In this document: in pieces, positions 1 to 23,245 of the stretch
Position numbering within the stretch: the stretch's first letter is position 1
How the letters are laid out: every line of letters begins with the position of its first letter
Virus record (IMG/VR): IMGVR_UViG_2718217709_000004
Direction: 5' to 3' (one strand)
DNA length: 23,245 nucleotides
Source: a virus
Lineage: Duplodnaviria; Heunggongvirae; Uroviricota; Caudoviricetes
Program-made: the position numbers and the translations under genes
The notes under the pieces: generated by a model
The model's input: only the letters and a program-made list of their open reading frames with translations
What the model was told of the DNA's origin: nothing
Databases searched by the model: none

Positions 1-68
1 TCTCTTTTAACTGATTTGTTGTGCGAGCATTATGTGCAGTTAACGGCTCACTAGCTAGTGAGAGTTCC

Positions 69-780: not shown

Positions 781-822
781 AGCGACCTCCCTTAACGTGG
801 TGCTGCCGCTATTCTAAGTTGC

Positions 823-1932: not shown

Positions 1933-2089
1933 CTGCTCCCTCCCTGTGCGGCATGGTCGCATGTGCGTGCGGAGGGGGTTACTGCTTTTTGTTGTCGCCG
2001 TGGCGAGAGAACGGCGCAGGGGTGAGATTACGCGCGTGGTGGGTGATGATTGTTGCCGAATCATTTAACGGATACAAGGGGCTGAAGCT

Positions 2090-3786: not shown

Positions 3787-3840
3787 TAAGTAATATGCAG
3801 GCGGCGCAGTGCGTCGCCTCTGACTGAAAGGAGTTTCCTG

Positions 3841-4206
3841 ATGAAAGAGACGAAAAACATCGATACCGAAAACACGGTAGTTGCTGACACTGTGAAAGAA
3901 ACCAGTGAGCGTGGCGTAAAACTTACCCAACCAATTGAGCGAGGCGGCGAAAAAATCACGTATGTGGAGATCACCGGGGCTATTGAGCAGGCTGGATCTC
4001 TGCGAGATTTGTCGCTGTCTGATGTGCTGAATCTGAAAGCGGAATCCATGTTTACGCTGCTGTCACGAGTGACATCACCGCGACTGGATGAAGTGACGAT
4101 CAAAAAAATGGCATCCCGTGACTTTATTCAGTTATGTGTGGTTGCCGTAAATTTTTTGAGCGGTGCGGACTCTGGCGGGAAGAACGAACAGGCGACGGAA
4201 GCCTGA
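3841..4206 (+). CDS. E: tail assembly chaperone (P2 gpE-like)
   Basis: 121-aa acidic protein between tube and tape measure genes; carries a slippery TTTTTTG near its 3' end. Confidence 0.8.
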   Translation: MKETKNIDTENTVVADTVKETSERGVKLTQPIERGGEKITYVEITGAIEQAGSLRDLSLSDVLNLKAESMFTLLSRVTSPRLDEVTIKKMASRDFIQLCVVAVNFLSGADSGGKNEQATEA

Positions 4207-4370
4207 TCACGGTTGTGTGCTTTGAGCACATAGAAGACTTTGTGGCAGATATTGCCGTTATTTTTAACTGGTCGCCCGCCGAAATCTTCATGATGACGCC
4301 CGGCGAAGTGGTTAGCTGGCGTGAGCGGGCGGCACTTCGCAGCGGGAATGCAGACAATGAAGACTCTTGA
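3841..4370 (+). CDS. E+E' frameshift product (programmed -1 frameshift)
   Basis: Slippery heptamer T TTT TTG at 4152-4158 in the E frame; the -1 frame stays open to 4370 (same frame as track ORF 4134..4370) and ends overlapping the T start. This is the conserved chaperone frameshift arrangement. Confidence 0.65.
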
Positions 4371-7164
4371 TATCCGGGTCGCTTTCAGCGCCGTTGACAG
4401 GCTGACCCAGCCTGCCGAAAACGCCCGCCGCCTGATGGGGCAGTTTGGTGACTCCATCCAGCGAACGCAGGGGGCGATCAAAAATCTCGAGCGTCAGGCG
4501 CGTTCATTTGAGCGCGCCCGCGACGCTGTCAGTAAAGCGGATGCGGGTATCGTGAAAGCACGACGCCAGCTTAACGCCCTTAATCAGTTACAACGCACGG
4601 GTACAGTGCTCAGCGAAAAACAACAAAAGCTGATGCAGCAGTTAAGCACCCGGCTTGAACGCCTGAATGAATCGCGCACGCGGGAAATTCAGAAAATGCG
4701 GGAGCTTGGCGGAGAGCTGAAACGCCACGGCATTTCCCTGACAGGCAGCGATAACACCATCCAGCAGGCCATCAGACGCACCGAACAGTACAACAATCAG
4801 CTTGAACGCGAACGGCAGGCGCTTGCGCGTGTAACGCGGGCGCGTGAGCGGTATTCGCGCGCGCAGGAAACAGCGGGAAAACTGAAAACAGGTGGTGCAC
4901 TGGCAATTGGTGCGGCAGCGGCGGGCGGCTATGCTGCCGGGCGTTTTTTGCAGCCTGCGATCGGGTTCGGGAAAGAGATGTCCCGCGTTCAGGCACTGAC
5001 GCGAATCGACCAGAACAGCCCGCAGTTTAAGGCGCTGCGTGAGCAGGCGTTAAAACTTGGCTCTGAAACGCAGTTCACCGCAGGCGATGCCGCCAGTGGG
5101 CAGGCATTTCTGGCAATGGCTGGCTTCACACCGCAGGCCATTCAGGCTGCGCTTCCCGGCGTGCTGAGCATGGCAACGGCTGGCGGTATGGACCTTGGCG
5201 AGACGGCAGATATTGGCTCAAATATCCTGACGCAGTTCGGCCTCTCCGCTGACCAGATGGACCGGGTCGGTGACACGCTTACAGCAGTGTTTACCCGTAC
5301 TAACACTGACCTTCGCGCACTGGGCGAAACCATGAAATATGCAGGTCCGGTGGCGGGTAAGCTGGGAATATCGCTGGAGCAGGCCGCAGCGATGGCGGGC
5401 GTGCTGGCGAATATGGGTATCAGAGGGAGTGATGCCGGGACGGCAATGCGTGCCAGCCTGGCTCGTCTGGCATCACCGCCAAAGGCGGCAGCAGAAGCGC
5501 TGAAAGAGCTGGGTGTGTCCGTCTCTGATGCGAACGGCAAAATGCGCCCGATGGAAGATGTGCTGGCCGACCTTTATAAAGCCACCCGTAAATACGGGGA
5601 AGTTGACCGGGTATCGTTCTTTAAGGACATTGCCGGGGAAGAGGCTTTCACGTCGTTTATGGCTCTCGTTGATGCGGCGGGTGACGGCTCCCTGCCCAAA
5701 CTGAGAAAAGAACTTGAGGGCGCACGCGGTGAGGCTGAACGCACGGCAAAGGTTATGGCCAATAACCTTGATGGCGACCTGAAATCACTCGGCAGTGCAT
5801 GGGAAGGGCTGCGTATCCGCATTGCAGATCTGATTGATGGTCCGCTGCGTTCTGTCACGCAGTGGCTCACGCGGGTGGTCTCAAAGGTGACGGCGCTGGC
5901 ACAGGCCCATCCGGTACTGACGCGCCAGTTACTGATAGCAGGCGGTGCGCTGCTGGCAATGACTGCAACGGTTGGCTCGTTGTCGCTGGTTATTGGAGTG
6001 CTTCACGGGAAGCTGGCCACGTTGCGTCTTGGTTTTTCTCTCCTGACCGGATCAATGAATGCTGTCAGGCTCCTGCCAGCACTATGGGGAATGGTGACGG
6101 GTTCCGTTTCGTTACTGGGGGGCGCTATCGGGGCGCTGTTCAGCCCGGTCGGATTGATTGCTGCTGCGTTTGTGGCTGCGGCAGTTCTCATCTGGAAATA
6201 CTGGGAACCCATCAAGGCGTTTTATGCCGGGGTGTTCAGCGGGATTATGGAGCGGCTGGCCCCGTTACGCGAAACCTTTGAACGGTTTGGTCCTGTTTTT
6301 GACGCAATCGGAAGCGGGATAAGTCAGGTGTTTAACTGGTTTAAATCGTTGCTGTCACCGATGGAGTCCAGCAAGGAAACGCTGGATAAATGTACCAGTG
6401 CTGGCGAGATATTCGGTAACGTTCTTGGCGGTGCGTTACAGCTTGTTCTGACGCCCGCAAAAATGTTGCTGGATACGCTGGCGTGGATACTTGAAAAACT
6501 CGGTGTGCTTCCGGATGAAGCGGAAAGGGCGAGAAAGAAAATCGAAGACGCACAGCGTGCGGCCATTCTTCAGGACAAGGTTGCTCTGTTTCAGGGAGAC
6601 ATTGCGAAAATCAATCCGCCGAAGTCTGCGGAAAATGGCAATGGCACCGGAGGTGATAAACCCAAAGACAATAAACCGCTCACAGACAGCAATACCGGTA
6701 CGCTACGCAGACTCAGCAAAATTGCTGATAACACAGGTAAGCTGGTTGATGAGACGAAAAAACGTATTGGCCCCGGCGATATTGTCTTTAAGAACCTGCC
6801 CCGCGCACTTGCCGTTCGTGGGGAGTGGCAGGAGCGGAAGATTGTGCAGGTCAGTAAGCCTGCCCCCGCAATTAATATCACACCCGTGGTCCCGGCTCCG
6901 CTGCCTCCGGCGCTGGTCCCTGTTGTTGCGGCCAGCTCCCGCCCGGTGGCGGAGGCCATACGATCTCCAGTGGCATCAGTTCCTGTAACTTCCCGTAACC
7001 GGGAGCCTGTTGCCTCCGGATTTGGTGGTGAAATTCATGTTCATCTGCATAACGTTGTTACGCAGAATCCCCGCGAACTGGCGAAACTGGTCGGTGAAAT
7101 GGTCAGGGCAGAAATGGAACGGCGCGCCCGTGCCGGGCGTGGCAGTTTTTACGATAAAGATTGA
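4357..7164 (+). CDS. T: tail tape measure protein (P2 gpT-like)
   Basis: Long ORF (about 940 aa) with an N-terminal coiled-coil region, central hydrophobic/Gly-Ala-rich segments and a Pro-rich C-terminus. Start is uncertain between 4321, 4348 and 4357; 4357 (MKTLDIRV) overlaps the E' stop. Confidence 0.85.
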   Translation: MKTLDIRVAFSAVDRLTQPAENARRLMGQFGDSIQRTQGAIKNLERQARSFERARDAVSKADAGIVKARRQLNALNQLQRTGTVLSEKQQKLMQQLSTRLERLNESRTREIQKMRELGGELKRHGISLTGSDNTIQQAIRRTEQYNNQLERERQALARVTRARERYSRAQETAGKLKTGGALAIGAAAAGGYAAGRFLQPAIGFGKEMSRVQALTRIDQNSPQFKALREQALKLGSETQFTAGDAASGQAFLAMAGFTPQAIQAALPGVLSMATAGGMDLGETADIGSNILTQFGLSADQMDRVGDTLTAVFTRTNTDLRALGETMKYAGPVAGKLGISLEQAAAMAGVLANMGIRGSDAGTAMRASLARLASPPKAAAEALKELGVSVSDANGKMRPMEDVLADLYKATRKYGEVDRVSFFKDIAGEEAFTSFMALVDAAGDGSLPKLRKELEGARGEAERTAKVMANNLDGDLKSLGSAWEGLRIRIADLIDGPLRSVTQWLTRVVSKVTALAQAHPVLTRQLLIAGGALLAMTATVGSLSLVIGVLHGKLATLRLGFSLLTGSMNAVRLLPALWGMVTGSVSLLGGAIGALFSPVGLIAAAFVAAAVLIWKYWEPIKAFYAGVFSGIMERLAPLRETFERFGPVFDAIGSGISQVFNWFKSLLSPMESSKETLDKCTSAGEIFGNVLGGALQLVLTPAKMLLDTLAWILEKLGVLPDEAERARKKIEDAQRAAILQDKVALFQGDIAKINPPKSAENGNGTGGDKPKDNKPLTDSNTGTLRRLSKIADNTGKLVDETKKRIGPGDIVFKNLPRALAVRGEWQERKIVQVSKPAPAINITPVVPAPLPPALVPVVAASSRPVAEAIRSPVASVPVTSRNREPVASGFGGEIHVHLHNVVTQNPRELAKLVGEMVRAEMERRARAGRGSFYDKD

Positions 7165-7176
7165 GGAGTCATGGCC

Positions 7177-7665
7177 ATGATGATGATCTACGGCATGTTT
7201 GTTTTTGAGCTGCGCACGCTGCCGCATCAGCAGTTACAGCAAAACAAAAGCTGGCGGCATGTGAAAAATGAACGCGTTAACCGTTCAGCAAGCTGGCAGT
7301 ATATCGGTGCAGGTGATGATCGCATCGTTCTTTCTGGTGTGCTTTATCCTGAAATTACAGGTGGCGAAGTGTCGCTGTCGCTGCTGACCACGCAGGCGTA
7401 TACAGGACGACCCTGGCCTTTGATTGATGGCGTCGGGCAGATTTACGGCATGTATGTCCTGACCGGAACGAACACGACCCGTTCCGAGTTTGATCGCTAC
7501 GGTAAGGCGAAAAAGATAGAATTTTCACTGACCCTTGAACGCTGTGATGAGGATTTGCGGGAGCGCCTGCAATCCTCATCGTTCAGCGATATGCTGTCCG
7601 GCTTCAAAGATAAAGTGACATCATCCCTTAACAGCGCGGCCAGTTCAGTTAAAGGGCTGTTCTGA
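7177..7665 (+). CDS. U: tail protein gpU-like
   Basis: Motifs VLSGVLYPEITGG and WPLIDG...IYGMYV parallel P2 gpU. Start chosen at the second or third ATG (7177) for spacing from the GAGGAG RBS at 7163-7168. Confidence 0.8.
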   Translation: MMMIYGMFVFELRTLPHQQLQQNKSWRHVKNERVNRSASWQYIGAGDDRIVLSGVLYPEITGGEVSLSLLTTQAYTGRPWPLIDGVGQIYGMYVLTGTNTTRSEFDRYGKAKKIEFSLTLERCDEDLRERLQSSSFSDMLSGFKDKVTSSLNSAASSVKGLF

Positions 7666-7682
7666 TTTAATGCTGGCCACTC

Positions 7683-7714
7683 ATACCTGGTAATAAGTGG
7701 CCAGTCTTAACACT
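7683..7714 (+). terminator. hairpin downstream of U (possible terminator)
   Basis: 9-bp stem ctggccact / agtggccag with a 14-nt loop; the downstream tract is only weakly T-rich. Confidence 0.35.
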
Positions 7715-7827
7715 CACCATTTGATTGCACCCGCGTTAACGATTTGTTACTGGGTATCAGACATGCTGGATAGCCAGTAGAAACATACCATTAAAATTAT
7801 TACAATAATTGGTCACATGATTATCTT

Positions 7828-8391
7828 ATGCTGAATAATAGAGATATGAATATTAATGAACTTAAAGACTGTATTCACTATGAAGTAATCGGTAGCGAGC
7901 GTCCTTTCTCCTGGCGAAAGGCAATTGTTCGCGCAATAAAACATAGAAGACTTCGTTATTTATTTTGGTGGCGCATAGCCAAATACCTTTTTGATAAAGG
8001 CGGATACTGCCGGAAGATTGCGGGGAAAATAGAACGTTTCATTCTTGATAAATATAATGTAACAGTCCCTTTAACTGTAAATATAGGGAAAGGCTTTGAT
8101 ATTTCTTATCTCAACAGTGTTGTTATCGGTCACAAAGTAACAATCGGTGAAAATTGTTCAATAAAACCGGGGGTAACTATTGGGCTACGTGGTGATTTTA
8201 ATGATATGGATATTGTTATAGGACATAATGTGACCATTGGTTGTAATGCCACCATTCTTGGTGGCAAAGTGCGTATAGGAAACAATGTCACAATAGGTGC
8301 TCATGCATTGGTATTGCATGATATTCCTGATGATTCAACATTCATCACTAAATTTCAGTCTGAAGTTATCTGCTCGTCCTCCCGCACATAA
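7828..8391 (+). CDS. hexapeptide-repeat (left-handed beta-helix) acetyltransferase, serine acetyltransferase/WcaB-like; cargo gene
   Basis: Repeated [LIV]-G-x-x-x-x hexads ([21 protein letters not shown]...[34 protein letters not shown]) and an N-terminal [13 protein letters not shown] segment typical of this acetyltransferase class. The region 7680-8400 is markedly AT-rich against GC-rich phage flanks. Start codon uncertain (7828 or 7846). Confidence 0.75.
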
Positions 8392-8972
8392 CCCTGATTC
8401 ATCAGCTCTGGCCATACGATATCCGGAGCTGTACTGGTGTCAATTCTACTCACTAATACTCTGTATTTTCTCCAGGAATCCAGTTGTGAATTTTCCTCGT
8501 TTGTTGCTATTTCAAGATTAACTGCATCCTGCAGAATTGCGATGTTATCTGTTGCCTCCTGGATCAACCTTGCCTTTTTCTCTTCCGCTTCCCGTATCCG
8601 AAACAGCTTTTCTGCTTCCTCATCCTTCACCCAGGATACGCCGTCCCACTTCTGATATTCCCCTGCTGGCGACAACCAGGTGACATTCTCTGGTAGCGGT
8701 CCGGGTTCAGAAATAAACAACGCGTCCCCCGATGCCACGTCATAGACCGTTTTACCACGATGGTCTTCAACAATATTCCACGATTCATTTTCACTGTTAA
8801 AAATTGCCACAAAGCCAGCAGGAATTTCCGGTGGGGCGATATCTGTAGAATTAGCTGGCAGCCCTGTATGAGGTGGAATATATGCGTCACCTTCACCAAT
8901 AAACTCATTAGTTCCGGCCAGCAGGTTATAAATTTTTACAGTACGTGATTGTTCACTCATTCTGAATGCCAT
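8355..8972 (-). CDS. G: tail fibre assembly chaperone (P2 gpG / Tfa-like)
   Basis: 205-aa ORF directly downstream of the tail fibre gene with the C-terminal [23 protein letters not shown] signature. Its last ~12 codons overlap the acetyltransferase gene in antisense. Confidence 0.8.
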
Positions 8973-11629
8973 TATGCAAGCCTCACAATATAATTAAATG
9001 CGATGTTTTTAACGGTGTTTTCCGCGTTACCAGCAGCGTTAACGGTGATGGTATGTCCATGTGAACCAATCGCAACAGAGTGCGTATGAGCGCCAATACC
9101 AACAGTGTGTGCATGTGCCCCAGCACTTGTAGCGGTACCTGATACTGAGTGGGTATGTGCGCCAGAAGAAGGCACAGTTCCATTCCCCACCACCGTGCCA
9201 CTTGATGCACCATCCAGCCAGTCGAAATTCATACCGCCACTGTTTGGTCTCCTTAATGGAACGGTATGAGTATGTGCGCCAGCACTATTTGCAGTACCAG
9301 ATACATTGTGGGTATGTGCACCTGTGTTATTCGTTGATTTAGTACCGTAATCAAACGAAGATGTGGTTTTCGTACCCAAATCCGTATTGGATGCGCTGGC
9401 GCTGTGGGTGTGCGATTTAATGCCATCCTGTTCCAGAGACAATACGTCCCGACCACTGGCGGGTTTGCCCTTGATTGTCCAGCCACGCATATCCGGGATC
9501 ACGCCTGACGGATAAGCGGCTGCAAGTTTCGGGTATGCAGATTTGTCAAAAGTCTGTCCCTGCATCAGGGCGTAACCAGACGGCACAGTATCTGATGGCC
9601 ACGGCAGCGGAACACCTGGCGGAAACGCTTCAATATTTGCCGAGCCGTCAAATTTTACGCCGTTAATTGTCCTTGCCGTTTTCAGCTTTGTTGCTGTAGC
9701 AGCATTGCCGGATAGTTCGCCTGAAAGACCACCGCTGAATGTCTGTTTCGCCGCCCATGTCTGAGCTTCGTCGATAATTGGCACACGTCTTGTCGTAATC
9801 GTGCGGCTTCCCGGATTTCCTGAAATGCGAACCATAAAAAAGCGGTAATTCGCTTTACTTACAGTGCTGCGCCATACATGCATTGAGCGCCCCGTACCAG
9901 AATCATCACTCGGACCAACTGCGATGTTTATCAGGTTGCCATCAATGACGCCCCAGTCCATACCGTCGGGAATATTGGTCATGTTATCAAGCCGAACGGT
10001 TATCAGACTGCCCGGCACAAAATCGTAGGTCTGCCAGTCCAGGCTGGTGAGTTTTGCCACTGCGCCACCGATACCCAGATTCAGGGGAAGTGAATAAGAT
10101 GTGTAAACTTCCCGCCATTCGCTCCACGAGCTGCCGGTATAAACGCGCTCAAACGTGCGACCTTTAAGGGTTGCACCTGTTCCGGCGGTTGTATAACGTT
10201 GCCATACGTTAACGCCATCAAAGCGCCTCAGCACTTCCAGAATACCGAGTACAGTCACGCCGTTTCCGTCCAGTATTGGACCATTGGTCGCTTTACCTGT
10301 AACGCTGTAAATACCTGGTGAGGTTACATCATTCAAATCACCGTCGTAATAACGGCTTTCTGACTGGTAGCCCACTCTTGACCACGGCTCCCATTGTGGG
10401 TTCTCTGCATCCCACGAGGCCGAAAGACAGCGAACATAAACATTTCCACGGCGGGTCGTGTAACGCTGCGTTCGCGAGTAACCACCACCTTCAAGAACTT
10501 CAAGGAGTCCCTGACCATAACTTCCTTCTTCCGGATAGTTGCGGTCAAATGAAGCGATTGAGCCACTACTGTTTCGCCATAAACCAAGATGCTCTGCGCC
10601 TCCGAGCGTGTTCAGGTCAATGGTTGTGCTCAGGGGGCGTGTTGCAGACTGAACCTGACGCCAGTAACTCCACGGACCGTCTGAACCATTCCATGTGCCA
10701 GAAAGGTTGCGCATATAAACATTGCCTGTTCTGGTGGTGTAACGCTGCATTCCTGCAAAATTACCGCCATTGAATACCTCCAGTACACCGACTGCACCGT
10801 CTTCAGGGAAATTTTTAGCAGCCGTCGCGTTAGTGGATGTAGCTTTAGACCAGACGCCAAGATAAGCCTTAACGGGACCAAATGTATTCAAGTCAGCATC
10901 AAGCGGCATTTCGCCATTGTTTTTCATAAACGTCAGGCTGGTAACGCCAACATTGTCCAGAAAAGCGCCCTTATCTGGAATATCGTCACCGTTCTGGTCT
11001 TTCTGCATACGTTTTTCAGCATTGTCATAGGCTGCTTTTACTGCCTTTGGCGTTGCCGCCAGCTCTTCACTGGTGCTGTTTGTTGCGCTACTTAACTGAG
11101 TAAAACCTTTTTCTGTCAGCGTGGCGTCAGGATGGCGGCGGGATTGCTCATGCTCTGCGATTTTGTCATCGACGTAATCCTGCGTCGCCATCACTGTGCT
11201 GGCATCAATACTCAGCTCAACGGACGCTACGTTGCTGACAGTAATAACCATGCGGCAGGTCTGCGCGCGCCCGGAGCCTTCAGCGAGTTCAGGCTTATAG
11301 CTTTCCGCCATGTTAGCGACCGCAATCAGTGTTCCGGCATCGTCATACAGACCCAGCTCACGCATCCAGAAGCCGCCCACTTCTGGCGGTACAACCAGTT
11401 CAGCCACGATATAGTTTTTATTCTTGTTATCCACGCTGACTTTATTCAGAGCGTGACGCCAGACCTCATGCACCAGTTTCGTCTGACCGGCATCCGGCAC
11501 CGGCAATTTGCCATTACCGTCACCCACGGCCATTGCAGACAGAGTTACTTTTTTCCCGCCGGGGACAGTGGCGGCTGCCAGCTTCGCGGCTCCGGCAGTA
11601 GTGATAGCGGTTTTAAATTTCGTGCTCAT
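8972..11629 (-). CDS. H: tail fibre protein (P2 gpH-like)
   Basis: 885-aa ORF with a conserved P2-type N-terminal region, three internal repeat units (QRYTTRxGNVY...W..W) and a C-terminal region with iterated GAHTHxV HxH motifs, followed by a Tfa gene. Confidence 0.85.
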
Positions 11630-11639
11630 TGTTTCTCAC

Positions 11640-12167
11640 TTATCCGGGATAAACAGTAATAACATCACCATCACAGACCACACCGCCTGTATACAGATAG
11701 CCGGGAATGTCCTGGATAATGTTCAGGCCGATAAGGTGGCGACTTGCGGGTTTGGCATCGGCAATCAGCCGTTCCATTTCCAGATACATTTCCTCGGTCA
11801 CACCACTGTCCAGCGTGCCAACATCAACCTTGAATGTTCCGGGTTCGCCGTCGAACTCCCACCACTCAGACACGCGAATGAGGTATCCCAGCGGCTCAAT
11901 GGCCCGGCGCAGTGCGCTGATGGTCCCTTTGTGTCGGTGTATCAGCCATGCATCACGAATAACCTGTCGCTTTGTCTCTTCCGGCCAGTTGCGATCCCAG
12001 CGGTCAACGGAAAATGCCCAGGCGAGATAAGGCAGCAGATGCACCGGGCAGGTGTCCGGTGACCACAGCGTGTTGAGGTCTACCGGGATGTTTGTAATGC
12101 GCGCTCCGACAGCTTCGGCGCAACGCATGAAATTGCTGGCTGATGGTGGTAACAGTGAATTACTCAT
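11640..12167 (-). CDS. I: baseplate assembly protein gpI-like
   Basis: 175 aa from MSNSLLPP; the ATG overlaps the stop of the upstream J fragment. Size and position match gpI. Confidence 0.8.
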   Translation of the reverse strand: MSNSLLPPSASNFMRCAEAVGARITNIPVDLNTLWSPDTCPVHLLPYLAWAFSVDRWDRNWPEETKRQVIRDAWLIHRHKGTISALRRAIEPLGYLIRVSEWWEFDGEPGTFKVDVGTLDSGVTEEMYLEMERLIADAKPASRHLIGLNIIQDIPGYLYTGGVVCDGDVITVYPG

Positions 12168-12474
12168 TACGCCCACCTTCGCTGATGGTGAATGACTCAC
12201 AGCGCGCCGCCTGTATGTCGCTGATGGCCATATTCTGTGTGGGTTCGATTATCTCCACGCGTTGCACACCGTGCACATGCAGTGCGGCAGCAATGGCGGA
12301 CAACGCCACGTCCTGACCGATAAGCCCCTGCTCAGCCAGCCACTTCCTGAACGACGATTCAGCCGCAGCCAGAATAGGTTCGGATTCCGGGCCGGGATAA
12401 AAGTACAGTTTTGCATTCAGCCGCCATGTCACGATTCTGGCGCTCTGACGGGCATGGCGAGAGATAGTGCTCAA
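12160..12474 (-). pseudogene. J: baseplate gpJ C-terminal fragment (5'-truncated)
   Basis: Only about 100 codons remain of a ~300-aa protein (...ILAAAESSFRKWLAEQGLIGQDVALSAIAAALHVHGVQRVEIIEP...). No J N-terminus, W, V, S or R genes lie upstream. Confidence 0.7.
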
Positions 12475-12619
12475 CGTTCACGCGGGCAGCGTAAACATCC
12501 GGGTTGAAGTTCTCGGCGGCTTCACGCAGATGTACCGGGCTGATTTCGCGGCCATCAACAGTTGATCCGGAGACAGCCACGCGAAACTTTTTGCGGGATG
12601 TCTTTTTTTCATTAGCCAT
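12359..12619 (-). pseudogene. O: capsid scaffold gpO N-terminal fragment fused out of frame to the J remnant
   Basis: MANEKKTSRKKFRVAVSGSTVDGREISPVHLREAAENFNPDVYAARVNVEHY parallels the P2 gpO N-terminus; GAGGGG RBS upstream. After about 50 codons the frame runs through J-derived sequence and stops at 12359. Confidence 0.7.
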
Positions 12620-12773
12620 AGTTTTTGCCCCTCTGACTGGTTCTTCAGTCATGATGGCAAAGCGTAACAGGCTGATACAAAGGGCTTTTGTTGTAAGAAA
12701 ACGGCCAGAACAGGGGGTTAAGGAGAACGGTTTCGCGCGCGGGTAATCTTCCTGTAATTACTCAGGGGGAGCA

Positions 12774-14036
12774 ATGATTCAGGACGCTTTTGTGCGCCAG
12801 CGTGCGCGGCAACTTTACTGGCAGGGTTATCCGCCCGCAGAAATATCACGTCTGATGGGAATAAACCCGAACACGATTTATGCGTGGAAAAAACGCGACC
12901 AGTGGGATGAAACGCCCCCCGTGCAGCGTGTCACGCAGTCCATCGATGCGCGCCTCATCCAGCTTACTGAAAAACAGAATAAAACAGGCGGTGACTTTAA
13001 GGAAATAGACCTGCTGACCCGGCAGCTTAAAAAGCTGCATGATGGCCAGCCGGATGTGATGGCCGCAGGAAAGAAAGGCCGGGCGAAAAAACTTAAAAAT
13101 CATTTCACGCCGGAACAGATTGCCGCACTGCGGGAAAAAATCATCAGCAGGCTGGAGTGGCATCAGCGGGGCTGGTTTGACTCCCTGACACTTTGCAGGG
13201 AAGCCGGGATACGTAACAGGATGATCCTGAAATCCCGACAGATTGGGGCGACCTGGTATTTTGCACAGGAAGCTCTGCTGATGGCGCTGCGTGACGATGT
13301 GGCGCAACCTTACCAGCGTAACCAGATTTTTTTGTCTGCGTCGCGTCGTCAGGCGTTCCAGTTTAAAAGCATTATTCAGAAGGTCGCGGCTGAAGTTGAT
13401 GTGGAGCTGAAAGGGGGCGATAAAATCATCCTCTCCAACGGCGCAGAGCTGCATTTTCTCGGCACTTCTGCTGCGTCGGCACAGTCCTATACGGGCAATT
13501 TTTATTTTGATGAATTTTTCTGGGTCAGTCGCTTTGCTGAACTGCGCAAGGTGGCTGGCGCTATGGCAACCCTCAGCGGACTGCGGCGCACCTACTTCTC
13601 CACGCCATCCACCGAAACGCACGAGGCGTACGCCTACTGGAACGGCGACCGCTGGAACGAGAAAAAGGCCTCGCATAAACGCCAGCGTTTTTCTGTGGAC
13701 TGGAAAACGCTGCATAACGGGCTTATCTGCCCTGACCGGACTTGGCGGCAAATTGTCACGCTGGAAGATGTGGTTAATCACGGCTGGAAACACACCGATA
13801 TCGACGAAATTCGTGATGAAAACACCGAAGACGAGTTCCTCAATCTCTATATGTGTGAGTTTGTCCGCGAAGGGGAATCGGCATTTAACCTGAATATCCT
13901 GATTGGCTGCGGTGTTGACGGATACGACGACTGGAAAGACTGGAAACCTTTTGCTCCCCGCCCGATGGGGAATCGTCCGGTATGGATTGGGTATGACGCA
14001 AACGGCAGCAGTGGCAACGGCGACATGCCAGCTTGA
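12774..14036 (+). pseudogene. P: terminase large (ATPase) subunit gpP, 3'-truncated
   Basis: N-terminal two-thirds of a P2-type large terminase (MIQDAFVRQRARQLYWQGYPPAEISRLMGINPNTIYAWKKRDQWDE...). The ORF ends at 420 aa and the A gene stop is only about 110 bp away, so no portal Q or cos can follow. Confidence 0.8.
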
Positions 14037-14101
14037 TGTTGGTGGAGCCGTCGTCGATACAAATTTTCATGTCGCTTTTCCTTATGTTGATTAATTAATC
14101 G

Positions 14102-14137
14102 TTTACGGGATTCTGAAATCCCGTTTTTGCCTGTTTT
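14102..14137. repeat. hairpin-containing direct repeat, copy 1 (intergenic, P remnant / A junction)
   Basis: tttacgggattctgaaatcccgtttttgcctgtttt: 7-bp stem acgggat / atcccgt followed by a T-run, acting as a plus-strand terminator-like element. Confidence 0.6.
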
Positions 14138-14146
14138 ATGCGCGCT

Positions 14147-16969
14147 TCATATATCGCGGCGCGTTTTTTGCTCATTTACGGGATTTGTGAATCCCGTTTC
14201 TGTCTGTTTTTTGTTTCCACTGGTCAGGCCACCCCGCAGCAGGTCTGCTTTGCGGTGGGCGCGTTCAGTTGTTTCACTGATTCTCTGTGCGTGCTCTGCG
14301 TCGCGGATGGCGCGCAGCATGTCAGAAAGTACGGTAACGGGTGTTTTCATGGTGTTCTGGTCTTGCTGAAGTGTGGATGCCAGGCGTGCGGCGGCTTCAT
14401 GGTCTGATGCCCTTAGTTGTTCCAGATAGCCGGCGACCGGGTTATGGCGGATCTCCGTGCTGCTTACGCCGTGATTACGGCTCAGGCGCTGCCAGAGCTG
14501 CGTGATTCGGCTGTCCGGGCGGGTATCCGGTTTGCGTACAATTTCAAATCCCTGCGGTGCAATGATGCTGCCGTCAACGTACAGGCTGCCGCCCCGTAAC
14601 AGGTGCTGCATCTGCTGTTCACCGATATGCAGGCCGAGAGATTCGGCAGATTCCCGCCATTCTTTAGCGAGTAATTCGTGGTTATCAGGCAAAGGCCGCT
14701 GCTGTTTGCGGCTCTGTGTCCAGCTCTGCATTTCATCACTGCTGTTTTTTGCCTGTTTGTCACGCAGCGAACGCATCAGCGCCCGGCGTTCGTGCCGTTT
14801 CAGTGAGCGCATCCAGTCATCCACATCAACGCCGTCAGGAAGCTGCGGCCACAGTGCTGGCCGTTCTTCCGGCTGTTCTGTCCCGTTGTTGTCCGTTTCC
14901 TGTACACGGGGACAGTTATTGCCACGAGTCCAAGGGGCGGCAGGGCCGCCCTGAAGGTCAAAACCATTTTCGTGGGCGTTGTCTTCCGGTTCTGGTTTAC
15001 GTCTTACCAGCTTCCAGTTATCCGGATGCGTGCACACACGGGAGGATTCCCCGATGAGTGGTGACCAGATCCCGTAAATCTGTACGCTCTGTTCGCCGTA
15101 ATCGTTCAGCTCATCTGCGAGGTCGTAGGCGGTGCGAATCAGGTAGTCCTTGCGTGGAACAAGCACGCCACCCTGTTTTTCAATGTAGGTGGCAAAACAC
15201 CCGGCATCGGCGGCAGCGAGTACCGCATCCATTGCATCATCTTTCAGCCGTTGCGGGCCTTCCGGATTGCGTGCCATCTGGCTGGCAAGGCGGCGCAGTT
15301 CACGCCACACCTGACGGGAGGGGATGCCAAAGAACTGGAACTGACGGACCCGGTGAAGGCGCGCCCAGCCGATGGCGCGCTCCACGCTCTCGGCCATTGA
15401 TTTTCCGGTTTCGTGGTCAACGCGTGGCTTGCCCGTTTTCGGGTCGATGCCATCCACGGCGCGGCTGTCCAGGTTCTTTCCGATGTAGGTGGCGATGTAG
15501 CTGGTTGGTGTGCCTTTTGAGCCGTCGACATACTCCGCCTTAAAACGCGGAGTTATGTCATCGCCCAGCTCGTGGCGGTCCTCCTGAATGGCAATATCGC
15601 AGACGTGGGACACGATGGTTTCAATCTCGTCCGGATGTGCAAAGACCATCATATGCCAGTGCACAGTGCCGTCATGGTGAGGCTCCACCGTGCGGATGCC
15701 ATACCAGCGCAGGCCGTCGCGGTTCAGTTTTTTGCGGACCGCCGCAAAAAACGTGTTAACCAGGTAATCGCTGGAGTCGCGCATGGTGGCCCCGTTCCAT
15801 TTGGGGTTCGGATGACCGTTCTCCGTTGTTGCGTGGTATTTTGACGGGCAGGTGACGGTCAGAAACACCGCTCTGTCGCCACGGGCTTCGGCCAGAAGTT
15901 CCAGTCCCTTCATGGTGGCCATCATTTCTGCCTTACGGTGAACCGGGTTACTTACTCCCGCGTAATACACCGTCTCGAGATCAATCGTGAACCCGTCTTC
16001 ATTTTCCAGCATGAAACTTTTCAGGAAATCGCGTGTTTTCTCGCGCTGTGCGCGAAACTCGCTTAACGCGTCCTGGCTCAGATAGGGGGATGTTTTTCTG
16101 GAAACCAGACAGGCGGCGCGGAGTTGTTCTTCCCGCCACTCACAACGTAACAGCCACAGTTTGCGTTTCCACCATTCCGCACAGGTCAGGCGAAGGATTG
16201 CGCCCGGCAGCAGCTCCGTGTCCGGTTCGTTCCTCCGGTCTTTGTCTGTTGTCAGTGCGTCATAATGTGGAGGCATGGCGTGCAGGTGTAACGCCATGCG
16301 GGCCAGCATCTGATAAGCCTTCAGCGTTACATCCATGGTCAGCTCGCCATCAGTCGCGCCAAAGCCATCGCAGAGTTTTTCGAAGGTGCTGCTGAACATC
16401 GCCGCCGTCATGGTGGCCAGCGTCTGTATCTGGTGTTTGTTGAGCTGCGGCAGGTAAAGCAAATCATCCAGGCGTTCGCGTCCGGCAAGGGAGCGATAAC
16501 CCGGTGTCAGCCAGCGGTGGTCGGTGCGGTCCAGACGTTCGAATATTTTGCGCAGGGTTCCGCACGCGTAGCGTTCAGCCTGCCAGCTCTTGTTGCCTTT
16601 CCGGCGATCGGCTTCCTGTTTTTTGCGCAGGAAGGAGAGGTGGCGAATAAGCGGATCGCGCAGATAGGACGGCAGCAGGCGCAGCGAGGCCATGGCTTCA
16701 TCCACCGCGCCACGTGCCTGTTTTCTGGCGTCTCCTGCCAGTGTGATGGTTTTGTCCTGTTTTTCCTGTGCGTCCAGGCTTTTATTAATCAGGTTGCCCA
16801 GCGGCGTGGCGGAGAACGCCGCATCAGCCATTTCCTGGCGGCGCTCGTTCTCTGCCCGGTAGGCATCCAGCCAGGAGGAAAGCGCGGATTCAGGAGCGGG
16901 GATCCCCGTTCCTTCACGCCCCACTGCGTGGCGCGGTTGTTGCCAGTCCCTGATGTACTCTGCCGTCAT
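14147..16969 (-). CDS. A: replication initiation endonuclease gpA (rolling-circle initiator)
   Basis: 940-aa ORF with the conserved YGIRTVEPHHDGTVHWHMMVF and YIATYIGKN catalytic-region motifs of P2/186 A proteins. It is longer than P2 A, so the C-terminal extension may be junction-derived. Confidence 0.85.
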   Translation of the reverse strand: MTAEYIRDWQQPRHAVGREGTGIPAPESALSSWLDAYRAENERRQEMADAAFSATPLGNLINKSLDAQEKQDKTITLAGDARKQARGAVDEAMASLRLLPSYLRDPLIRHLSFLRKKQEADRRKGNKSWQAERYACGTLRKIFERLDRTDHRWLTPGYRSLAGRERLDDLLYLPQLNKHQIQTLATMTAAMFSSTFEKLCDGFGATDGELTMDVTLKAYQMLARMALHLHAMPPHYDALTTDKDRRNEPDTELLPGAILRLTCAEWWKRKLWLLRCEWREEQLRAACLVSRKTSPYLSQDALSEFRAQREKTRDFLKSFMLENEDGFTIDLETVYYAGVSNPVHRKAEMMATMKGLELLAEARGDRAVFLTVTCPSKYHATTENGHPNPKWNGATMRDSSDYLVNTFFAAVRKKLNRDGLRWYGIRTVEPHHDGTVHWHMMVFAHPDEIETIVSHVCDIAIQEDRHELGDDITPRFKAEYVDGSKGTPTSYIATYIGKNLDSRAVDGIDPKTGKPRVDHETGKSMAESVERAIGWARLHRVRQFQFFGIPSRQVWRELRRLASQMARNPEGPQRLKDDAMDAVLAAADAGCFATYIEKQGGVLVPRKDYLIRTAYDLADELNDYGEQSVQIYGIWSPLIGESSRVCTHPDNWKLVRRKPEPEDNAHENGFDLQGGPAAPWTRGNNCPRVQETDNNGTEQPEERPALWPQLPDGVDVDDWMRSLKRHERRALMRSLRDKQAKNSSDEMQSWTQSRKQQRPLPDNHELLAKEWRESAESLGLHIGEQQMQHLLRGGSLYVDGSIIAPQGFEIVRKPDTRPDSRITQLWQRLSRNHGVSSTEIRHNPVAGYLEQLRASDHEAAARLASTLQQDQNTMKTPVTVLSDMLRAIRDAEHAQRISETTERAHRKADLLRGGLTSGNKKQTETGFTNPVNEQKTRRDI
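14175..14210. repeat. hairpin-containing direct repeat, copy 2 (inside the 3' end of A)
   Basis: tttacgggatttgtgaatcccgtttctgtctgtttt: same stem as copy 1 with a different loop, about 29/36 nt identical. It encodes the last residues of the A ORF (TETGFTNPVNEQK). Confidence 0.6.
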
Positions 16970-16975
16970 AGTGAT

Positions 16976-17341
16976 TTACTTCGTCATGCCATTCAGGGTG
17001 TCGCGGCAGACTGTAGCCAGCCGCTGAATTTCCAGCACGGTGTCTTCTGTGTCGGCATGGCGATGTGTGATGCGGATGCTGTCGGCAATCACATCGACGA
17101 TTGCAGAGGATGGGCGCTGGTAAATGCCAATAACGGACGGGGTGCCACCTTCAATGCGGTAAAGCCTGTAATTTCCCTCGTGGCTGTCAATCATGTAGCG
17201 ACCATCAATAACAATCTTTCCGTCAGCGAGCTGCGGTACAGGCAGGGATTTCAGGTACATGTCATAACGATCACGCACGCGAGCGGCAAGATCTCGTTCT
17301 GTGTTGAGCAGGTATTCAAGAAAGTCGTTGGCGAGAATCAT
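16976..17341 (-). CDS. hypothetical early protein (121 aa) immediately upstream of A
   Basis: Intact ORF whose stop lies 6 nt before the A start; family not recognised. Confidence 0.5.
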   Translation of the reverse strand: MILANDFLEYLLNTERDLAARVRDRYDMYLKSLPVPQLADGKIVIDGRYMIDSHEGNYRLYRIEGGTPSVIGIYQRPSSAIVDVIADSIRITHRHADTEDTVLEIQRLATVCRDTLNGMTK

Positions 17342-20287: not shown

Positions 20288-20491
20288 TTAGCTGTTAGCC
20301 AAAGCGTCTTTTAACATCGCCACAAGGTTTACTTCAGGCTTTTCCATTTTGGCGCGTTTGGGGCGGATAATAATTCGACCGTCAGCCAACATCTTTTTGC
20401 ATGTATTAAGAGGGATACCTGTTATCTCTGCATATTTCTGCAGGGATACATAGGGGGCATTCACATTGATATTGATGGTTATACCTGACAT
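20288..20491 (-). CDS. small DNA-binding protein, Cox/Apl-like (possible excisionase / switch regulator)
   Basis: 67 aa; YVSLQKYAEITGIPLNTCKKMLADGRI resembles the helix-turn-helix of P2 Cox-type proteins; second gene of the lytic-side operon. Confidence 0.45.
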   Translation of the reverse strand: MSGITININVNAPYVSLQKYAEITGIPLNTCKKMLADGRIIIRPKRAKMEKPEVNLVAMLKDALANS

Positions 20492-20507: not shown

Positions 20508-20714
20508 TCAGGAAGATTTGTTTTGTTCTTTCTGGGTTAGCTCTAGGCCGCGAAGGAAGATCATGCGCGCCATGTTAGAGGATGAGCGTTGTTCTTTAGC
20601 TGCCATTTCATCAATGACGGCTCGCTCCTCGAGGGACAGCCGAAGTGCCAGTCTTGGACCTGTGGCGGTGTTACGCGGAATGCGTGATCTGGTATCGTGA
20701 AGAACTTGTTTCAT
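20508..20714 (-). CDS. ribbon-helix-helix (Arc/CopG-like) regulator, first gene of the lytic-side operon
   Basis: ALRLSLEERAVIDEMAAKEQRSSSNMARMIFLRGLE fits the beta-strand / helix / helix pattern of RHH proteins; transcribed divergently from the repressor gene. No obvious RBS. Confidence 0.5.
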   Translation of the reverse strand: MKQVLHDTRSRIPRNTATGPRLALRLSLEERAVIDEMAAKEQRSSSNMARMIFLRGLELTQKEQNKSS

Positions 20715-20756
20715 AGTGGTATATTGTGATCATCTAATAGCTCGTGAAATCATTTT

Positions 20757-20774
20757 GGTATCAAAAAAGATACC
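20757..20774. promoter_or_regulatory. palindromic candidate operator in the divergent switch region
   Basis: Perfect inverted repeat ggtatc-aaaaaa-gatacc between the divergent RHH and XRE genes; a second ggtat half-site and a tgatca palindrome lie at 20718-20732. Confidence 0.4.
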
Positions 20775-20790
20775 TGTCAAGGTTTTTTGT

Positions 20791-21195
20791 ATGAAAAATG
20801 ATATTGGTCAGCGGTTGCGTGAGGAAAGGGAAAGATTGGGACTTAGTCAAGTTGCCATGAGCGACATTGGTGGAGTCAAAAAGCTAACTCAGCTTAGATA
20901 TGAGAAAGGAGATAGCTTTCCTGATGCTGCGTATTTGGCAGCGCTGTCTCGTTTTGGCCTTGATGTTCAGTATGTTGTGTTGGGAATTCACTCACCTGAA
21001 ACTTATAACGATGATGAGCAGGAGTTGATTACTCGCTTTCGAGCAGCTTCGTTAGATGTGAAAAACGCGGTGATTGGGGCTTTAAAAGGTGCGATCAGTG
21101 AAAAGGAAACTCAGCCATCAGGACGTGAGTTAAATATTTCTGGTGGTAATAACCGTATCGCTGGTCGTGACTATAACGAAACTAAGGGTAGGTGA
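20791..21195 (+). CDS. XRE-family helix-turn-helix repressor (CI-like immunity repressor candidate)
   Basis: IGQRLREERERLGLSQVAMSDIGGVKKLTQLRYEKGDSFPDAAYLAALSRFGLDVQYVVLG is a classic Cro/CI-type HTH; divergent from the lytic operon and co-directional with int. Start taken at ATG 20791 (MKNDIGQ), possibly leaderless, rather than the upstream GTG at 20716. Confidence 0.7.
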   Translation: MKNDIGQRLREERERLGLSQVAMSDIGGVKKLTQLRYEKGDSFPDAAYLAALSRFGLDVQYVVLGIHSPETYNDDEQELITRFRAASLDVKNAVIGALKGAISEKETQPSGRELNISGGNNRIAGRDYNETKGR

Positions 21196-21210
21196 TAGTA
21201 GGGAGGTGAC

Positions 21211-21861
21211 ATGGCCGTCAACTCAAACGGTTCAAACAATCGCGTTGCTGGGCGTGATTTTCACGAAAAGAATATTCAGATAGAGCGATATGATGGTTCT
21301 CATACCGTCAATATCGCAATCCCTTCGAATAATGATGATGACGATCGCCCTTTGCTTAAGGCTCAGCGTAAGGAGCTAAATAGCTTGGTTGCTGCTATTG
21401 CAGAAGCTAGCAATACTGAAGCGTTTATTATTTGGCAAAAAGTACATGCGGAGATTGGTGTAGCTGGTATTGATGATATGACAGTAAATCAATATAAAAC
21501 AGCGGAGAGTTTTCTGCATGCAATGCTTGAGCGATGTAAAGATCATGATGCCTGTAAGGCTCTTGTAAGTTTATTACTACGTAACAGTGAAGACTGTGGA
21601 CTTCGACAAAAACTTCTGCGGTATTGCCATATCAATTTCGGTACAGGACGTTTAAACGATCTTACTCGTTCTCAGTTACAGTCTGCATTGTCGTGGTTAG
21701 AGCAACAATCGGCATCAAGCCACACAGAGAGTTCGACCTTACCAGAAGTCCGACTTCGTGCTTCAGAATTAATCCGACTTTATCCAAAAGAAATAATATT
21801 CTTTATCTGCGTAGGGGTTTTGGTAGGCGGTGTCATTTCTAGGGCGTTTTTTAATTTGTAA
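21211..21861 (+). CDS. tail-anchored membrane protein of unknown function (216 aa)
   Basis: Strong GGGAGG RBS; soluble N-terminal domain with a DDDD tract and a C-terminal hydrophobic helix IIFFICVGVLVGGVI. Its N-terminus repeats the C-terminal motif of the upstream repressor. AT-rich. Confidence 0.6.
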   Translation: MAVNSNGSNNRVAGRDFHEKNIQIERYDGSHTVNIAIPSNNDDDDRPLLKAQRKELNSLVAAIAEASNTEAFIIWQKVHAEIGVAGIDDMTVNQYKTAESFLHAMLERCKDHDACKALVSLLLRNSEDCGLRQKLLRYCHINFGTGRLNDLTRSQLQSALSWLEQQSASSHTESSTLPEVRLRASELIRLYPKEIIFFICVGVLVGGVISRAFFNL

Positions 21862-21890
21862 TCTTACTTGAGCTAAATTGAGGTAATGAT

Positions 21891-22238
21891 ATGAAAGTAA
21901 AAAAGGTTCAACTATTAGTTACTTTTTTATCTATGTTTTCTTTTTCCGCCGTCGCAATGCCTTTTAAAACTATTGAACGTGAGAGTTTCAATGGGGTATG
22001 GCCATTTAATACTGATGAGGTTCAATTACAGTGTCTTGATGGTAATCCTTATGTGATGAATTTTGACGATAATAAGTTATATGCACTTACAGGTTTGGCT
22101 CGAATAAAAGGTAAAACATTTGGTGCGTTACCGTTAGATAACAATAATCCATTTTGGCTAGATAATGATGCCGCCCCAGGGTTAAAAAAGAGCCTGGGGG
22201 ATGTCACTAAGGCTGCATTTGATTTATGTGATAAGTAA
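21891..22238 (+). CDS. secreted small protein with a Sec signal peptide, DUF2511 (YebY)-like
   Basis: N-terminal MKVKKVQLLVTFLSMFSFSAVA signal peptide, two Cys, WPF and YALTG motifs; GAGGTAA RBS. The family assignment is from memory, not a search. Confidence 0.55.
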   Translation: MKVKKVQLLVTFLSMFSFSAVAMPFKTIERESFNGVWPFNTDEVQLQCLDGNPYVMNFDDNKLYALTGLARIKGKTFGALPLDNNNPFWLDNDAAPGLKKSLGDVTKAAFDLCDK

Positions 22239-22243: not shown

Positions 22244-23245
22244 ATGTCGGTTCGTAAGATTCCATCAGGTAAATGGCTTTGCGAATGTTATCCCTACGGG
22301 GCATCGGGAAAACGCATTCGTAAACAGTTTGCGACAAAAAGTGAGGCGCTCTCTTATGAGCGCCGTTTAATGAATAGTAGAGTTGGAGACGAGTTTCAAG
22401 ATGGTTCTGGTCCTCGTCTTTCTGAGTTGATTGCTCGTTGGTTTGAGATGTACGGTAAAACCTTGTCCTCTGGTGCAGAGCGCAAAGTCAAACTTGAGGC
22501 GATTTGTTCCAGGCTGGGAGATCCATTTGCTTCTCAGTTTGACAAAAATATGTTTGCCACTTATCGGGAAAGAAGGTTATCAGGAGAGTGGAATCCCAAG
22601 GGGAAGAAAAAACTTAGTGAAGCAACCGTTAATCGCGAGCAGTCATATCTACATGCTGTTTTTGCCGAACTGAAGCGCCTTGGGGAGTGGTCTGGTGAAA
22701 ACCCCCTGACTGGTATTCGCAAGTTTCGTGAGGAAGAAAAGGAACTGGCGTTTCTGTATGTAGATGAGATTGAACGCCTTCTGATTGCGTGTGATGAGTC
22801 ACGGAATAAAGATTTGGGGGTTGTTGTCCGTATTGGGCTTGCGACTGGTGCTCGGTGGAGTGAAGCAGAAGGGTTAAAGCAATCTCAAGTACTGCCCGGT
22901 CGAATCACATTTGTTAAAACTAAAGGAAAGAAGAACCGCACTGTACCGATTTCACCTCAATTGCAGGCTATGCTTCCCAAAAAACGAGGAGCGCTATTTT
23001 CACCATGTTATGAGGCTTTTGACGCTGCAATTAAGAGAGCGAAGATCGAGCTTCCTGATGGGCAATTAACTCATGTGCTACGTCACACGTTTGCCAGTCA
23101 TTTTATGATGCGGGGCGGAAATATTCTTGTGTTGCAAAAAATACTGGGGCATAGCGATATAAAAATGACTATGCGTTATGCGCATTTTGCTCCAGGTCAT
23201 TTAGAGGCTGCTGTTGAATTGAACCCTTTTGACAATAGAGGGTAA
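22244..23245 (+). CDS. int: P2-type tyrosine integrase
   Basis: 333 aa; N-terminal GKRIRKQF...KSEA and C-terminal ...HVLRHTFASHFMMRGGNILVLQKILGHSDIKMTMRYAHFAP (catalytic R, H-x-x-R and Y) parallel P2 Int. The stop is at the window edge; att is expected beyond it. Confidence 0.85.
   Translation: MSVRKIPSGKWLCECYPYGASGKRIRKQFATKSEALSYERRLMNSRVGDEFQDGSGPRLSELIARWFEMYGKTLSSGAERKVKLEAICSRLGDPFASQFDKNMFATYRERRLSGEWNPKGKKKLSEATVNREQSYLHAVFAELKRLGEWSGENPLTGIRKFREEEKELAFLYVDEIERLLIACDESRNKDLGVVVRIGLATGARWSEAEGLKQSQVLPGRITFVKTKGKKNRTVPISPQLQAMLPKKRGALFSPCYEAFDAAIKRAKIELPDGQLTHVLRHTFASHFMMRGGNILVLQKILGHSDIKMTMRYAHFAPGHLEAAVELNPFDNRG

Follow-up and report, generated by a model that had tools for sequence, protein, structure and literature searches.

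This report concerns the lysogenic operon of a P2-family prophage (Peduoviridae) in a 23,245-nucleotide stretch of viral DNA, IMG/VR record IMGVR_UViG_2718217709_000004. The whole stretch is called the window below. The operon consists of an XRE-family repressor gene, two small open reading frames that we call ORF2 and ORF3, and an integrase gene (int). In this operon and its relatives, the constant unit is a repressor that carries a short motif in its C-terminal tail and, with it, a membrane protein whose N-terminus carries that motif too. Because ORF2 is conserved with the repressor and the motif that it shares with the repressor tail co-varies, ORF2 appears to be part of the immunity module and not cargo. 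Only ORF3 is swappable cargo, one of at least eight alternatives found in the same slot. The operon is thus built in three layers: an immunity pair, a swap slot and the integrase.

An initial annotation of the window had placed the four genes on one strand and had assigned them to the lysogenic side of the prophage, and both claims are borne out. The ORFs for the repressor (20791..21195, 134 amino acids), ORF2 (21211..21861, 216 amino acids, with a helical Flk_N domain), ORF3 (21891..22238, 115 amino acids) and the integrase (22244..23245, 333 amino acids) are all present on the + strand. They are separated by gaps of 15, 29 and 5 nucleotides, and no terminator-like site was found on the + strand between them. 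The repressor gene is the first of the int operon, is co-directional with the other three, and diverges from an early lytic operon whose Arc-like and Cox-like genes it faces. ORF2 and ORF3 are AT-rich, as the initial annotation had also noted, with a GC content of 0.36-0.42, compared with 0.44-0.47 for the repressor gene and int and 0.52-0.56 for the structural genes. What did not stand is the view that ORF2 and ORF3 form one cargo pair. ORF2 is constant with the repressor, the gene that follows it is variable, and its motif co-varies with the repressor tail.

The matched motif of the repressor and ORF2

A G/N-rich motif of about 16 residues is found both in the C-terminal tail of the repressor (NISGGNNRIAGRDY) and at the N-terminus of ORF2 (NSNGSNNRVAGRDF). 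In the repressor, which ends in LNISGGNNRIAGRDYNETKGR, the motif LNISGGNNRIAGRDYN covers residues 115-130 (21133..21180, + strand). ORF2 starts with MAVNSNGSNNRVAGRDFHEK; its motif VNSNGSNNRVAGRDFHEK covers residues 3-20 (21217-21270, + strand) and is followed by a degenerate second repeat at about residues 27-38. The AGRD core of the motif, N-R-x-A-G-R-D-Y/F, occurs exactly twice in a six-frame translation of the window. The tail has been kept while the repressor bodies diverged, as the repressors of three loci are 39-41% identical overall and conserved in the tail. In an alignment of 21 sequences that includes Pseudomonas-type pairs, the invariant residues are concentrated in the two motifs. 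In the repressor tail, G118, R122, A124, G125, R126 and D127 do not vary among these 21 sequences. Invariant residues of the ORF2 motif are S5, G7, N10, R11, G14, D16 and E19. We considered a repeat at the level of DNA as the source of the motif and rejected it. The two coding stretches differ at synonymous sites, and conservation of the motif thus acts on the protein.

The motif changes jointly in the two proteins. Its class is equal in the repressor tail and the partner in 43 of 48 unique pairs, and no established pair crosses classes; the remaining pairs, five in number, reflect parsing artefacts, degenerate motif copies or an intervening motif ORF. The concordant pairs include 33 of class GRD[YF]/GRD[YF], all six with a QQFNG..GD motif (GVGQQFNGPVGSVTSGDVVN with QQFNGAVEQVAAGDIKN), three with a VVVQG..GRDL tail and a VDVQG..GRDL partner, and one with an AGHTF tail and an AGHTY partner. 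A further match, NNVQIG with NVQIG, links the repressor tail (...NGGSNNVQIGSV) and a Flk_N protein (...DGNGNVQIGKV) of YO077_2, a P2-like phage of Ralstonia. The two genes are convergent there, and the match is therefore no by-product of adjacency or of translation across a junction. In Pseudomonas phage B3 (L227, NC_006548, 3153-4156), the ORF18 repressor (...GISVTGDGNRTAGRDFHERKE) and ORF20, a hypothetical protein with two transmembrane segments (VNIEVTGSNNIVAGRDFIENHL), carry a matched motif. B3 ORF20 and Ps59 gp18, each encoded by the gene that follows the repressor gene, are two-transmembrane proteins unrelated to ORF2, which they match only in residues 1-30, the motif. No account of this motif pairing came up in literature searches that dealt with Flk and prophages, with morons that P2 phages carry between repressor and int, and with the repressors of B3-like phages. 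As a separate observation, two high-GC prophages from IMG/VR (L116, 2517-2981, and L114) have an extra ORF between the repressor and Flk_N genes that also starts with a motif. The extra ORF of L116 (AGHTY) matches the repressor tail (AGHTF) and the Flk_N protein has AGRDF, so that one repressor has two motif-bearing partners.

The pairing is also conserved in gene order. The order XRE repressor, Flk_N gene, variable gene and int was found in Klebsiella, E. coli, Rosenbergiella, Mixta, Izhakiella, Enterobacter, Hafnia and Citrobacter, in a degraded copy in Arsenophonus, and in 80 IMG/VR loci. Wherever an intact related locus was examined, the Flk_N gene accompanies this type of repressor and the gene downstream varies. 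The same pair of repressor and partner is also present in high-GC B3-like transposable prophages of Pseudomonas. These carry a Ner-like gene, a CII-like gene and, downstream of the pair, a lysis cassette; they have no int and do not follow the P2 layout.

The repressor and ORF2 share a reading frame in the window. At their junction (21193..21210, + strand), three consecutive in-frame stops, TGA TAG TAG, are followed by the Shine-Dalgarno sequence GGAGGTGAC for ORF2. Among related loci (L001-L148) the gap is 0-18 nucleotides (0, 3, 9, 15 or 18 when in frame), the stop often abuts a GTG, and 53 of 59 distinct junctions are in frame, although the junction types are few and related. One junction, in L077, has four consecutive stops. 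We rejected an obligatory fusion or readthrough product. When the two sequences were joined into one query, a search of 5.8 billion proteins gave nothing but separate proteins of ~210 amino acids. At six junctions the two genes are in different frames, and the most frequent stop is TAA. Because no natural fusion was found and out-of-frame junctions exist, neither fusion nor readthrough is required.

The repressor is small. A probable helix-turn-helix (HTH) domain at about residues 1-65 (HTH_31 E 8e-5, phrog_8 E 2.5e-14, partial matches to RstR/DicA-like families in NCBIfam) is followed by a linker and the C-terminal motif, and residues ~75-105 read as probably helical. The Pfam score for HTH_3/HTH_31 is 23.2, below the gathering threshold of 27, and PHROG families of transcriptional regulators match with E-values as low as 2.5e-14. 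The 134 residues have no Pfam match to Peptidase_S24, the domain of repressors of the lambda CI/LexA type that cleave themselves in a RecA-dependent manner.

ORF2 had been described as a soluble domain with a single C-terminal transmembrane anchor, and this description holds. Hydropathy has one strong segment, at the very C-terminus (residues 195-213 of 216, Kyte-Doolittle 2.36). The AlphaFold model has a disordered stretch at residues 1-40, helices at 50-171 (pLDDT 80-90) and a transmembrane helix at 192-214 (21784-21852, + strand). The bulk of the protein most likely faces the cytoplasm and is held at the inner membrane through this anchor. Profile searches, which the initial annotation had proposed, led for ORF2 to the Flk_N domain (about residues 45-171; 21343-21723, + strand). 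In addition to phrog_5825 (E 4e-103), ORF2 has a partial match to the NCBIfam Flk family PRK10715 (E 8.6e-16) over residues 37-166. At 58 bits, compared with a curated cut-off of 353, this match does not make ORF2 a full-length equivalent of Flk. The Pfam family Flk_N (PF27202) is precomputed on nearly all homologues, and these calls are on the homologues. An exhaustive search of 1.84 billion representative proteins with a profile hidden Markov model gave only 134 clusters, in three groups. The first contains short tail-anchored proteins of 180-230 amino acids with a beta-type N-terminal motif. The second is true Flk, with 320-490 amino acids, two domain copies and no motif; by profile match, Flk-type proteins have two domain stretches and ORF2-type proteins one. 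Proteins of the third group have an internal transmembrane segment and then a C-terminal extension, a sensor-like topology. A sequence search of the PDB with ORF2 gave no significant match.

The swap slot and ORF3

Related loci have 336 to 1874 bp of DNA between the Flk_N gene and int, with at least eight unrelated contents. These are a DUF2511 protein (ORF3 in the window), a 288-residue BRCT-WYL protein, DUF8087, a ~295-residue protein with a partial PDC-S48 match, a pair of zinc-ribbon and coiled-coil proteins, membrane proteins of ~243 residues, a secreted protein of 137 residues, or nothing. Even among Klebsiella prophages at one insertion site (pgsA-uvrC), the slot contains either BRCT-WYL or YebY. 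The initial annotation had regarded the position between repressor and int as typical of cargo. This is right for the integrase-proximal slot and not for ORF2, which lies outside the cargo and is tied to the repressor. The third hotspot that iLund4u reported for P2-like phages is a variable region close to CI and int (10.1101/2024.10.15.618418).

The alternative cargos include several that look defence-like or damage-sensing (L003, 5647-6513; L069, 4141-5037; L067, L081, L086 and L089). The ~295-residue protein, whose PDC-S48 match is from PADLOC, has a C-terminal BRCT-like region, and the coiled-coil partner of the recurrent zinc-ribbon pair is tail-anchored. With the conserved immunity pair now separated from the true cargo slot beside int, the slot, with its BRCT-WYL, PDC-S48-like and other candidate defence genes, is worth mining.

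ORF3 (21891..22238, + strand) was described initially as a small, exported, DUF2511-like protein with two cysteines, and it is all of these. It matches Pfam DUF2511 with 28.4 bits (cut-off 21) and phrog_2950 with E 9e-40. Its start resembles a signal peptide (about residues 1-23, MKVKK... with AVA at 21-23), and its only two cysteines, C48 and C113, align with the C48-C113 disulfide pair of YebY. By sequence, YebY (7n0j) matches ORF3 with E 0.003 and both cysteines aligned. The AlphaFold model of ORF3 (pLDDT 75.8) matches YebY 7n0j in Foldseek with probability 1.0 and a TM-score of 0.75-0.80, and also MlbQ with probability 1.0. The ORF3 subfamily has both cysteines invariant and an invariant block of its own, YVMNFDDN. 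Its neighbors are the Flk_N gene and int, which places it outside the yobA-yebZ-yebY copper operon. Published work on YebY had already pointed out yebY homologues with a XerD-like recombinase on one side and a phage CI repressor on the other (PMC8689200). The present analysis provides the prophage YebY subfamily with a defined context. All prophage-type DUF2511 genes that were checked are directly 3' of a Flk_N gene. The converse is not true: Flk_N genes also have other downstream neighbors or none.

Our best guess, by analogy with MlbQ and with exclusion genes at the same position in Gram-positive phages, is that ORF3 is a periplasmic binding or immunity-type protein and is cargo for lysogenic conversion. 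It might bind an incoming envelope-active agent, much as MlbQ is proposed to bind a lantibiotic. The lipoprotein Ltp, for comparison, blocks DNA injection. ORF3 may have a role in superinfection exclusion or other anti-phage activity. Any ligand that we might name for ORF3 would be a guess from such analogies, and this weighs against our reading of the protein. PADLOC-DB 2.0 has no match for ORF2 or ORF3, and only generic HTH matches for the repressor, in agreement with the initial annotation, which did not recognise ORF2 and ORF3 as any named system.

Possible roles of the repressor-ORF2 pair

Exit from lysogeny is poorly understood in P2-type and in Mu/B3-type prophages because their repressors are without a RecA-cleavable domain. 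We postulate, with middling confidence, that pairing of the two motifs docks the repressor onto membrane-bound ORF2, and that ORF2 is a dedicated partner or regulator of the repressor. The disordered C-terminal tail of the repressor and the disordered N-terminus of ORF2 could associate through a homotypic contact of the beta-strand or beta-arch type. In this case ORF2 would hold the repressor at the membrane in a fixed stoichiometry and control its availability or stability, as a membrane-anchored anti-repressor or co-regulator. Such an arrangement could supply an input from the cell envelope to a repressor without a RecA-cleavable domain. The position of ORF2 is that of ImmA in immR-immA-int operons, and its topology is like that of anti-sigma factors. 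RNA-seq of the B3-like phage Fc02 found the repressor and the gene downstream of it (e4) co-transcribed in the lysogen (PMC9936078); homology of e4 to ORF2 could not be established. Conservation of a membrane-anchored partner in hosts as different as E. coli, Pseudomonas and Ralstonia, and its link to the repressor through a motif, make this partner a testable candidate for the input or output that the switch seems to lack, and B3 ORF18/ORF20 provide a cultivable system for the motif pairing.

Several points weigh against this reading. Since the lineages are not independent of each other, the co-variation comes down to about four independent events in evolution, and in Ps59 the motifs are mismatched, with AGQVY in the tail and AGRDF in the partner. 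In the AlphaFold model, the ORF2 motif is disordered and is not docked on the helical domain, and the structural matches are to small helical bundles, which are weak evidence. The commonest motif class is rich in charged residues (R, D, E and K). Concerted change of the motifs could also come about through a common third partner, such as a protease or chaperone, instead of direct pairing. Lastly, the prophage of the window is rearranged and probably defective, and for this reason expression of the operon in the window can only be inferred.

Of the other explanations, the likeliest, although we think it unlikely, is that the proteins are an amyloid-type signalling pair like Bab/Agp and NLR/Bell, in which a change of state in the repressor, such as oligomerisation or dissociation from DNA, would serve to template the double repeat at the N-terminus of the membrane protein. 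Templating might activate a membrane effector, with abortive infection or cell death as the outcome, or co-aggregation might inactivate the repressor. The genomic signature is present, as a co-varying motif of ~20 residues is found C-terminally in one protein and N-terminally in its neighbor, and it agrees with that of published systems (10.1101/2020.01.06.895854), including Bab/Agp in hotspots of E. coli prophages (10.1101/2024.11.07.622273). Hydrophobic residues alternate in the motifs, which are rich in G, N and Q, the NVQIG core of the Ralstonia class resembles the RHIM/BASS3 signature G-phi-Q-phi-G, and every partner is a membrane protein. There are two pseudo-repeats in the membrane partner and a single one in the repressor, a layout that recalls HET-s and NWD2. 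However, the charged residues of the commonest motif class do not suit an amyloid, and neither an NLR/STAND or TPR sensor nor a Bell/HeLo-like domain is present; one partner is an XRE HTH protein and the other a Flk_N or two-transmembrane protein. Furthermore, the partner is made constitutively alongside the repressor, and a simple heterodimeric beta-hairpin fits the same data. We consider it quite unlikely that a co-evolving amyloid-like (prion-type) motif couples the two proteins such that the lysis-lysogeny state is passed to or from the inner membrane by templated assembly. If it were so, templated signalling would extend from immune receptors to phage gene regulation, in a repressor-linked version of the mechanism of Bab/Agp and NLR/HET-S. 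This version would be widespread in P2-like and B3-like prophages of Proteobacteria and would provide an induction or abortive-infection trigger for non-SOS repressors.

It is likewise rather improbable that ORF2 is an independent superinfection-exclusion protein or membrane moron and that the motif is a tag for a third factor, for example a degron or targeting signal for a membrane protease such as FtsH. The repressor and ORF2 would then compete for the third factor, or be co-regulated by it, without contact. The exclusion genes for Sie2009 and Ltp sit between repressor and int. Genes next to a repressor, such as rexAB and bstA, are classic exclusion loci (PMC7067206). Moreover, phrog_6521, which matches ORF2 with E 9e-10, is labelled a moron membrane protein, and the motif is in disordered termini, as degrons are. 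Yet at least four motif classes change jointly, and a host factor would need to co-vary across Enterobacterales, Pseudomonas and Ralstonia. In addition, ORF2 is not exchangeable, whereas the true morons of the next slot are.

A further idea, which we regard as highly unlikely, is that ORF2 and ORF3 are a two-gene exclusion or anti-phage cargo system. Every phage-type DUF2511 gene examined does follow a Flk_N gene, and both products are envelope-associated and encoded in an AT-rich region. But the gene downstream of ORF2 can be any of at least eight others or can be absent, the ORF2 family has 194 clusters compared with 18 for ORF3, ORF2 is cytoplasmic except for its anchor whereas ORF3 is periplasmic, and PADLOC finds nothing for either. 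We reject as a general function, and think extremely improbable in any case, that ORF2 acts in the manner of Flk on the host's flagellar type III export switch and changes flagellation of the lysogen: homology to the N-terminal region of Flk and the same tail-anchored topology speak for it, but homologues are abundant in Klebsiella (one cluster is present on 754 contigs), which is non-flagellate, ORF2 has one domain copy and Flk two, Flk is without the N-terminal motif, and the link to the repressor would be left unexplained.

The surrounding prophage and related systems

The intergenic region between the Arc-like and repressor genes (20715..20790) is the probable divergent control region, read from a promoter scan, repeats and the sequence itself, with consensus matches only. 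A predicted sigma-70-like promoter on the minus strand has its -35 (TTGACA) at 20780-20775 and its -10 at 20757-20752. A palindrome, GGTATC-N6-GATACC (20757-20774), is in the spacer of this predicted early promoter. Direct repeats of TCATnnTGGTAT are found at 20711-20722 and 20750-20761, 39 bp apart (copies TCATAGTGGTAT and TCATTTTGGTAT). The palindrome and the direct repeats are candidate operators.

On the minus strand, the Arc-like gene (20508-20714, phrog_3431 E 1e-28), which encodes a ribbon-helix-helix protein, opens the early operon, and a gene for a Cox-like excisionase/repressor (20288-20491, phrog_575 E 1e-27) belongs to the same operon. The Arc-like gene is unannotated in the RefSeq E. 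coli record, where a 45-residue ORF is called opposite it (20563-20700, + strand); the record of Escherichia phage 520873 does annotate it. At the other end of the lysogenic operon, int (22244..23245, + strand) starts 5 nucleotides past the ORF3 stop and encodes a P2-type tyrosine integrase of 333 amino acids (Int_N E 5e-32, Phage_integrase E 2.5e-22, phrog_1).

The region is 98% identical to phage 520873 (Peduoviridae, genus Xuanwuvirus), and over its entire 23 kb the window matches the chromosome of E. coli FORC_031, and those of several other genomes, with 100% identity. The module was found in 521 of 5426 complete E. coli genomes, with at least 99% identity in 480 of these. Among cultured phages, tblastn searches with ORF2, ORF3, P0185 and B3 ORF20 found matches only in phage 520873, three Ralstonia phages, B3 and Ps59, and the module is nearly unsampled among sequenced phage isolates. 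In phage 520873 (L002, NC_049344, 3998-5020), the homologues of ORF2 and ORF3 are unannotated and fragmented (three tblastn pieces each) and int is split in two. These could be sequencing frameshifts or true decay.

The rearrangement is visible in the first part of the window (1-17000, e.g., 12774-14036, 8355-12200 and 2090-7665). A 420-residue fragment of the terminase large subunit directly adjoins replication gene A, and tail genes I, H and G run opposite to the block of sheath, tube and tape-measure genes. In passing, we noticed no portal, capsid or scaffold ORFs in positions 1-17000. An ORF for a 187-residue hexapeptide-repeat protein resembling acyltransferases (7828-8391, + strand) is between tail gene U and a tail-fibre assembly gene and may be cargo at a hotspot of the P2 Z/fun type.

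Parts of the operon resemble several known systems. In the lysogenic operons of P2 (C-int) and 186 (cI-int), the repressor gene and int have, as here, one orientation and lie opposite the cox/apl early operon. C of P2 abuts int. The repressor of the window, however, is of the XRE type with a motif tail, and not P2 C or 186 CI, and an obligatory partner gene is between it and the slot. The immR-immA-int operons of ICEBs1 and phi105-type elements combine an XRE repressor, a co-transcribed dedicated regulator and an integrase, divergent from the lytic or transfer operon. Here only the order of the operon is alike, as ORF2 has no COG2856 metalloprotease domain in Pfam or NCBIfam and, in contrast to ImmA, is membrane-anchored.

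ORF2 and Flk (Fluke/RflH) of Salmonella and E. coli have in common a helical Flk_N domain in a protein of the cytoplasm that has a C-terminal inner-membrane anchor. Flk has ~330 residues, two domain copies and no motif, whereas ORF2 has 216 residues, one copy and an N-terminal beta-motif, and is prophage-borne, repressor-adjacent and present in non-flagellate hosts. ORF3 shares its fold, signal peptide and disulfide pair with the DUF2511 proteins YebY of the E. coli AZY operon and MlbQ, a lantibiotic self-resistance lipoprotein. It is ~30% identical to YebY, is not in a copC/copD operon, and belongs to a distinct prophage subfamily. Ltp (TP-J34) and Sie2009 of Gram positive phages are small, envelope-exposed products of lysogens encoded at the same position of the lysogeny module; they have no homology to ORF3, and the analogy concerns ORF3 only.

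The closest precedent for matched terminal motifs in neighboring genes is amyloid signalling, as in Bab/Agp. The Bab/Agp and BASS NLR/Bell pairs resemble the repressor and ORF2 in that neighbors have matched terminal motifs that co-evolve, one partner is directed to the membrane, and the genes are prophage-borne. The motif of the window differs from the BASS pattern G-phi-Q-phi-G. In place of an NLR/TPR sensor there is a DNA-binding repressor, and in place of a Bell-type domain there are a transmembrane anchor and Flk_N.

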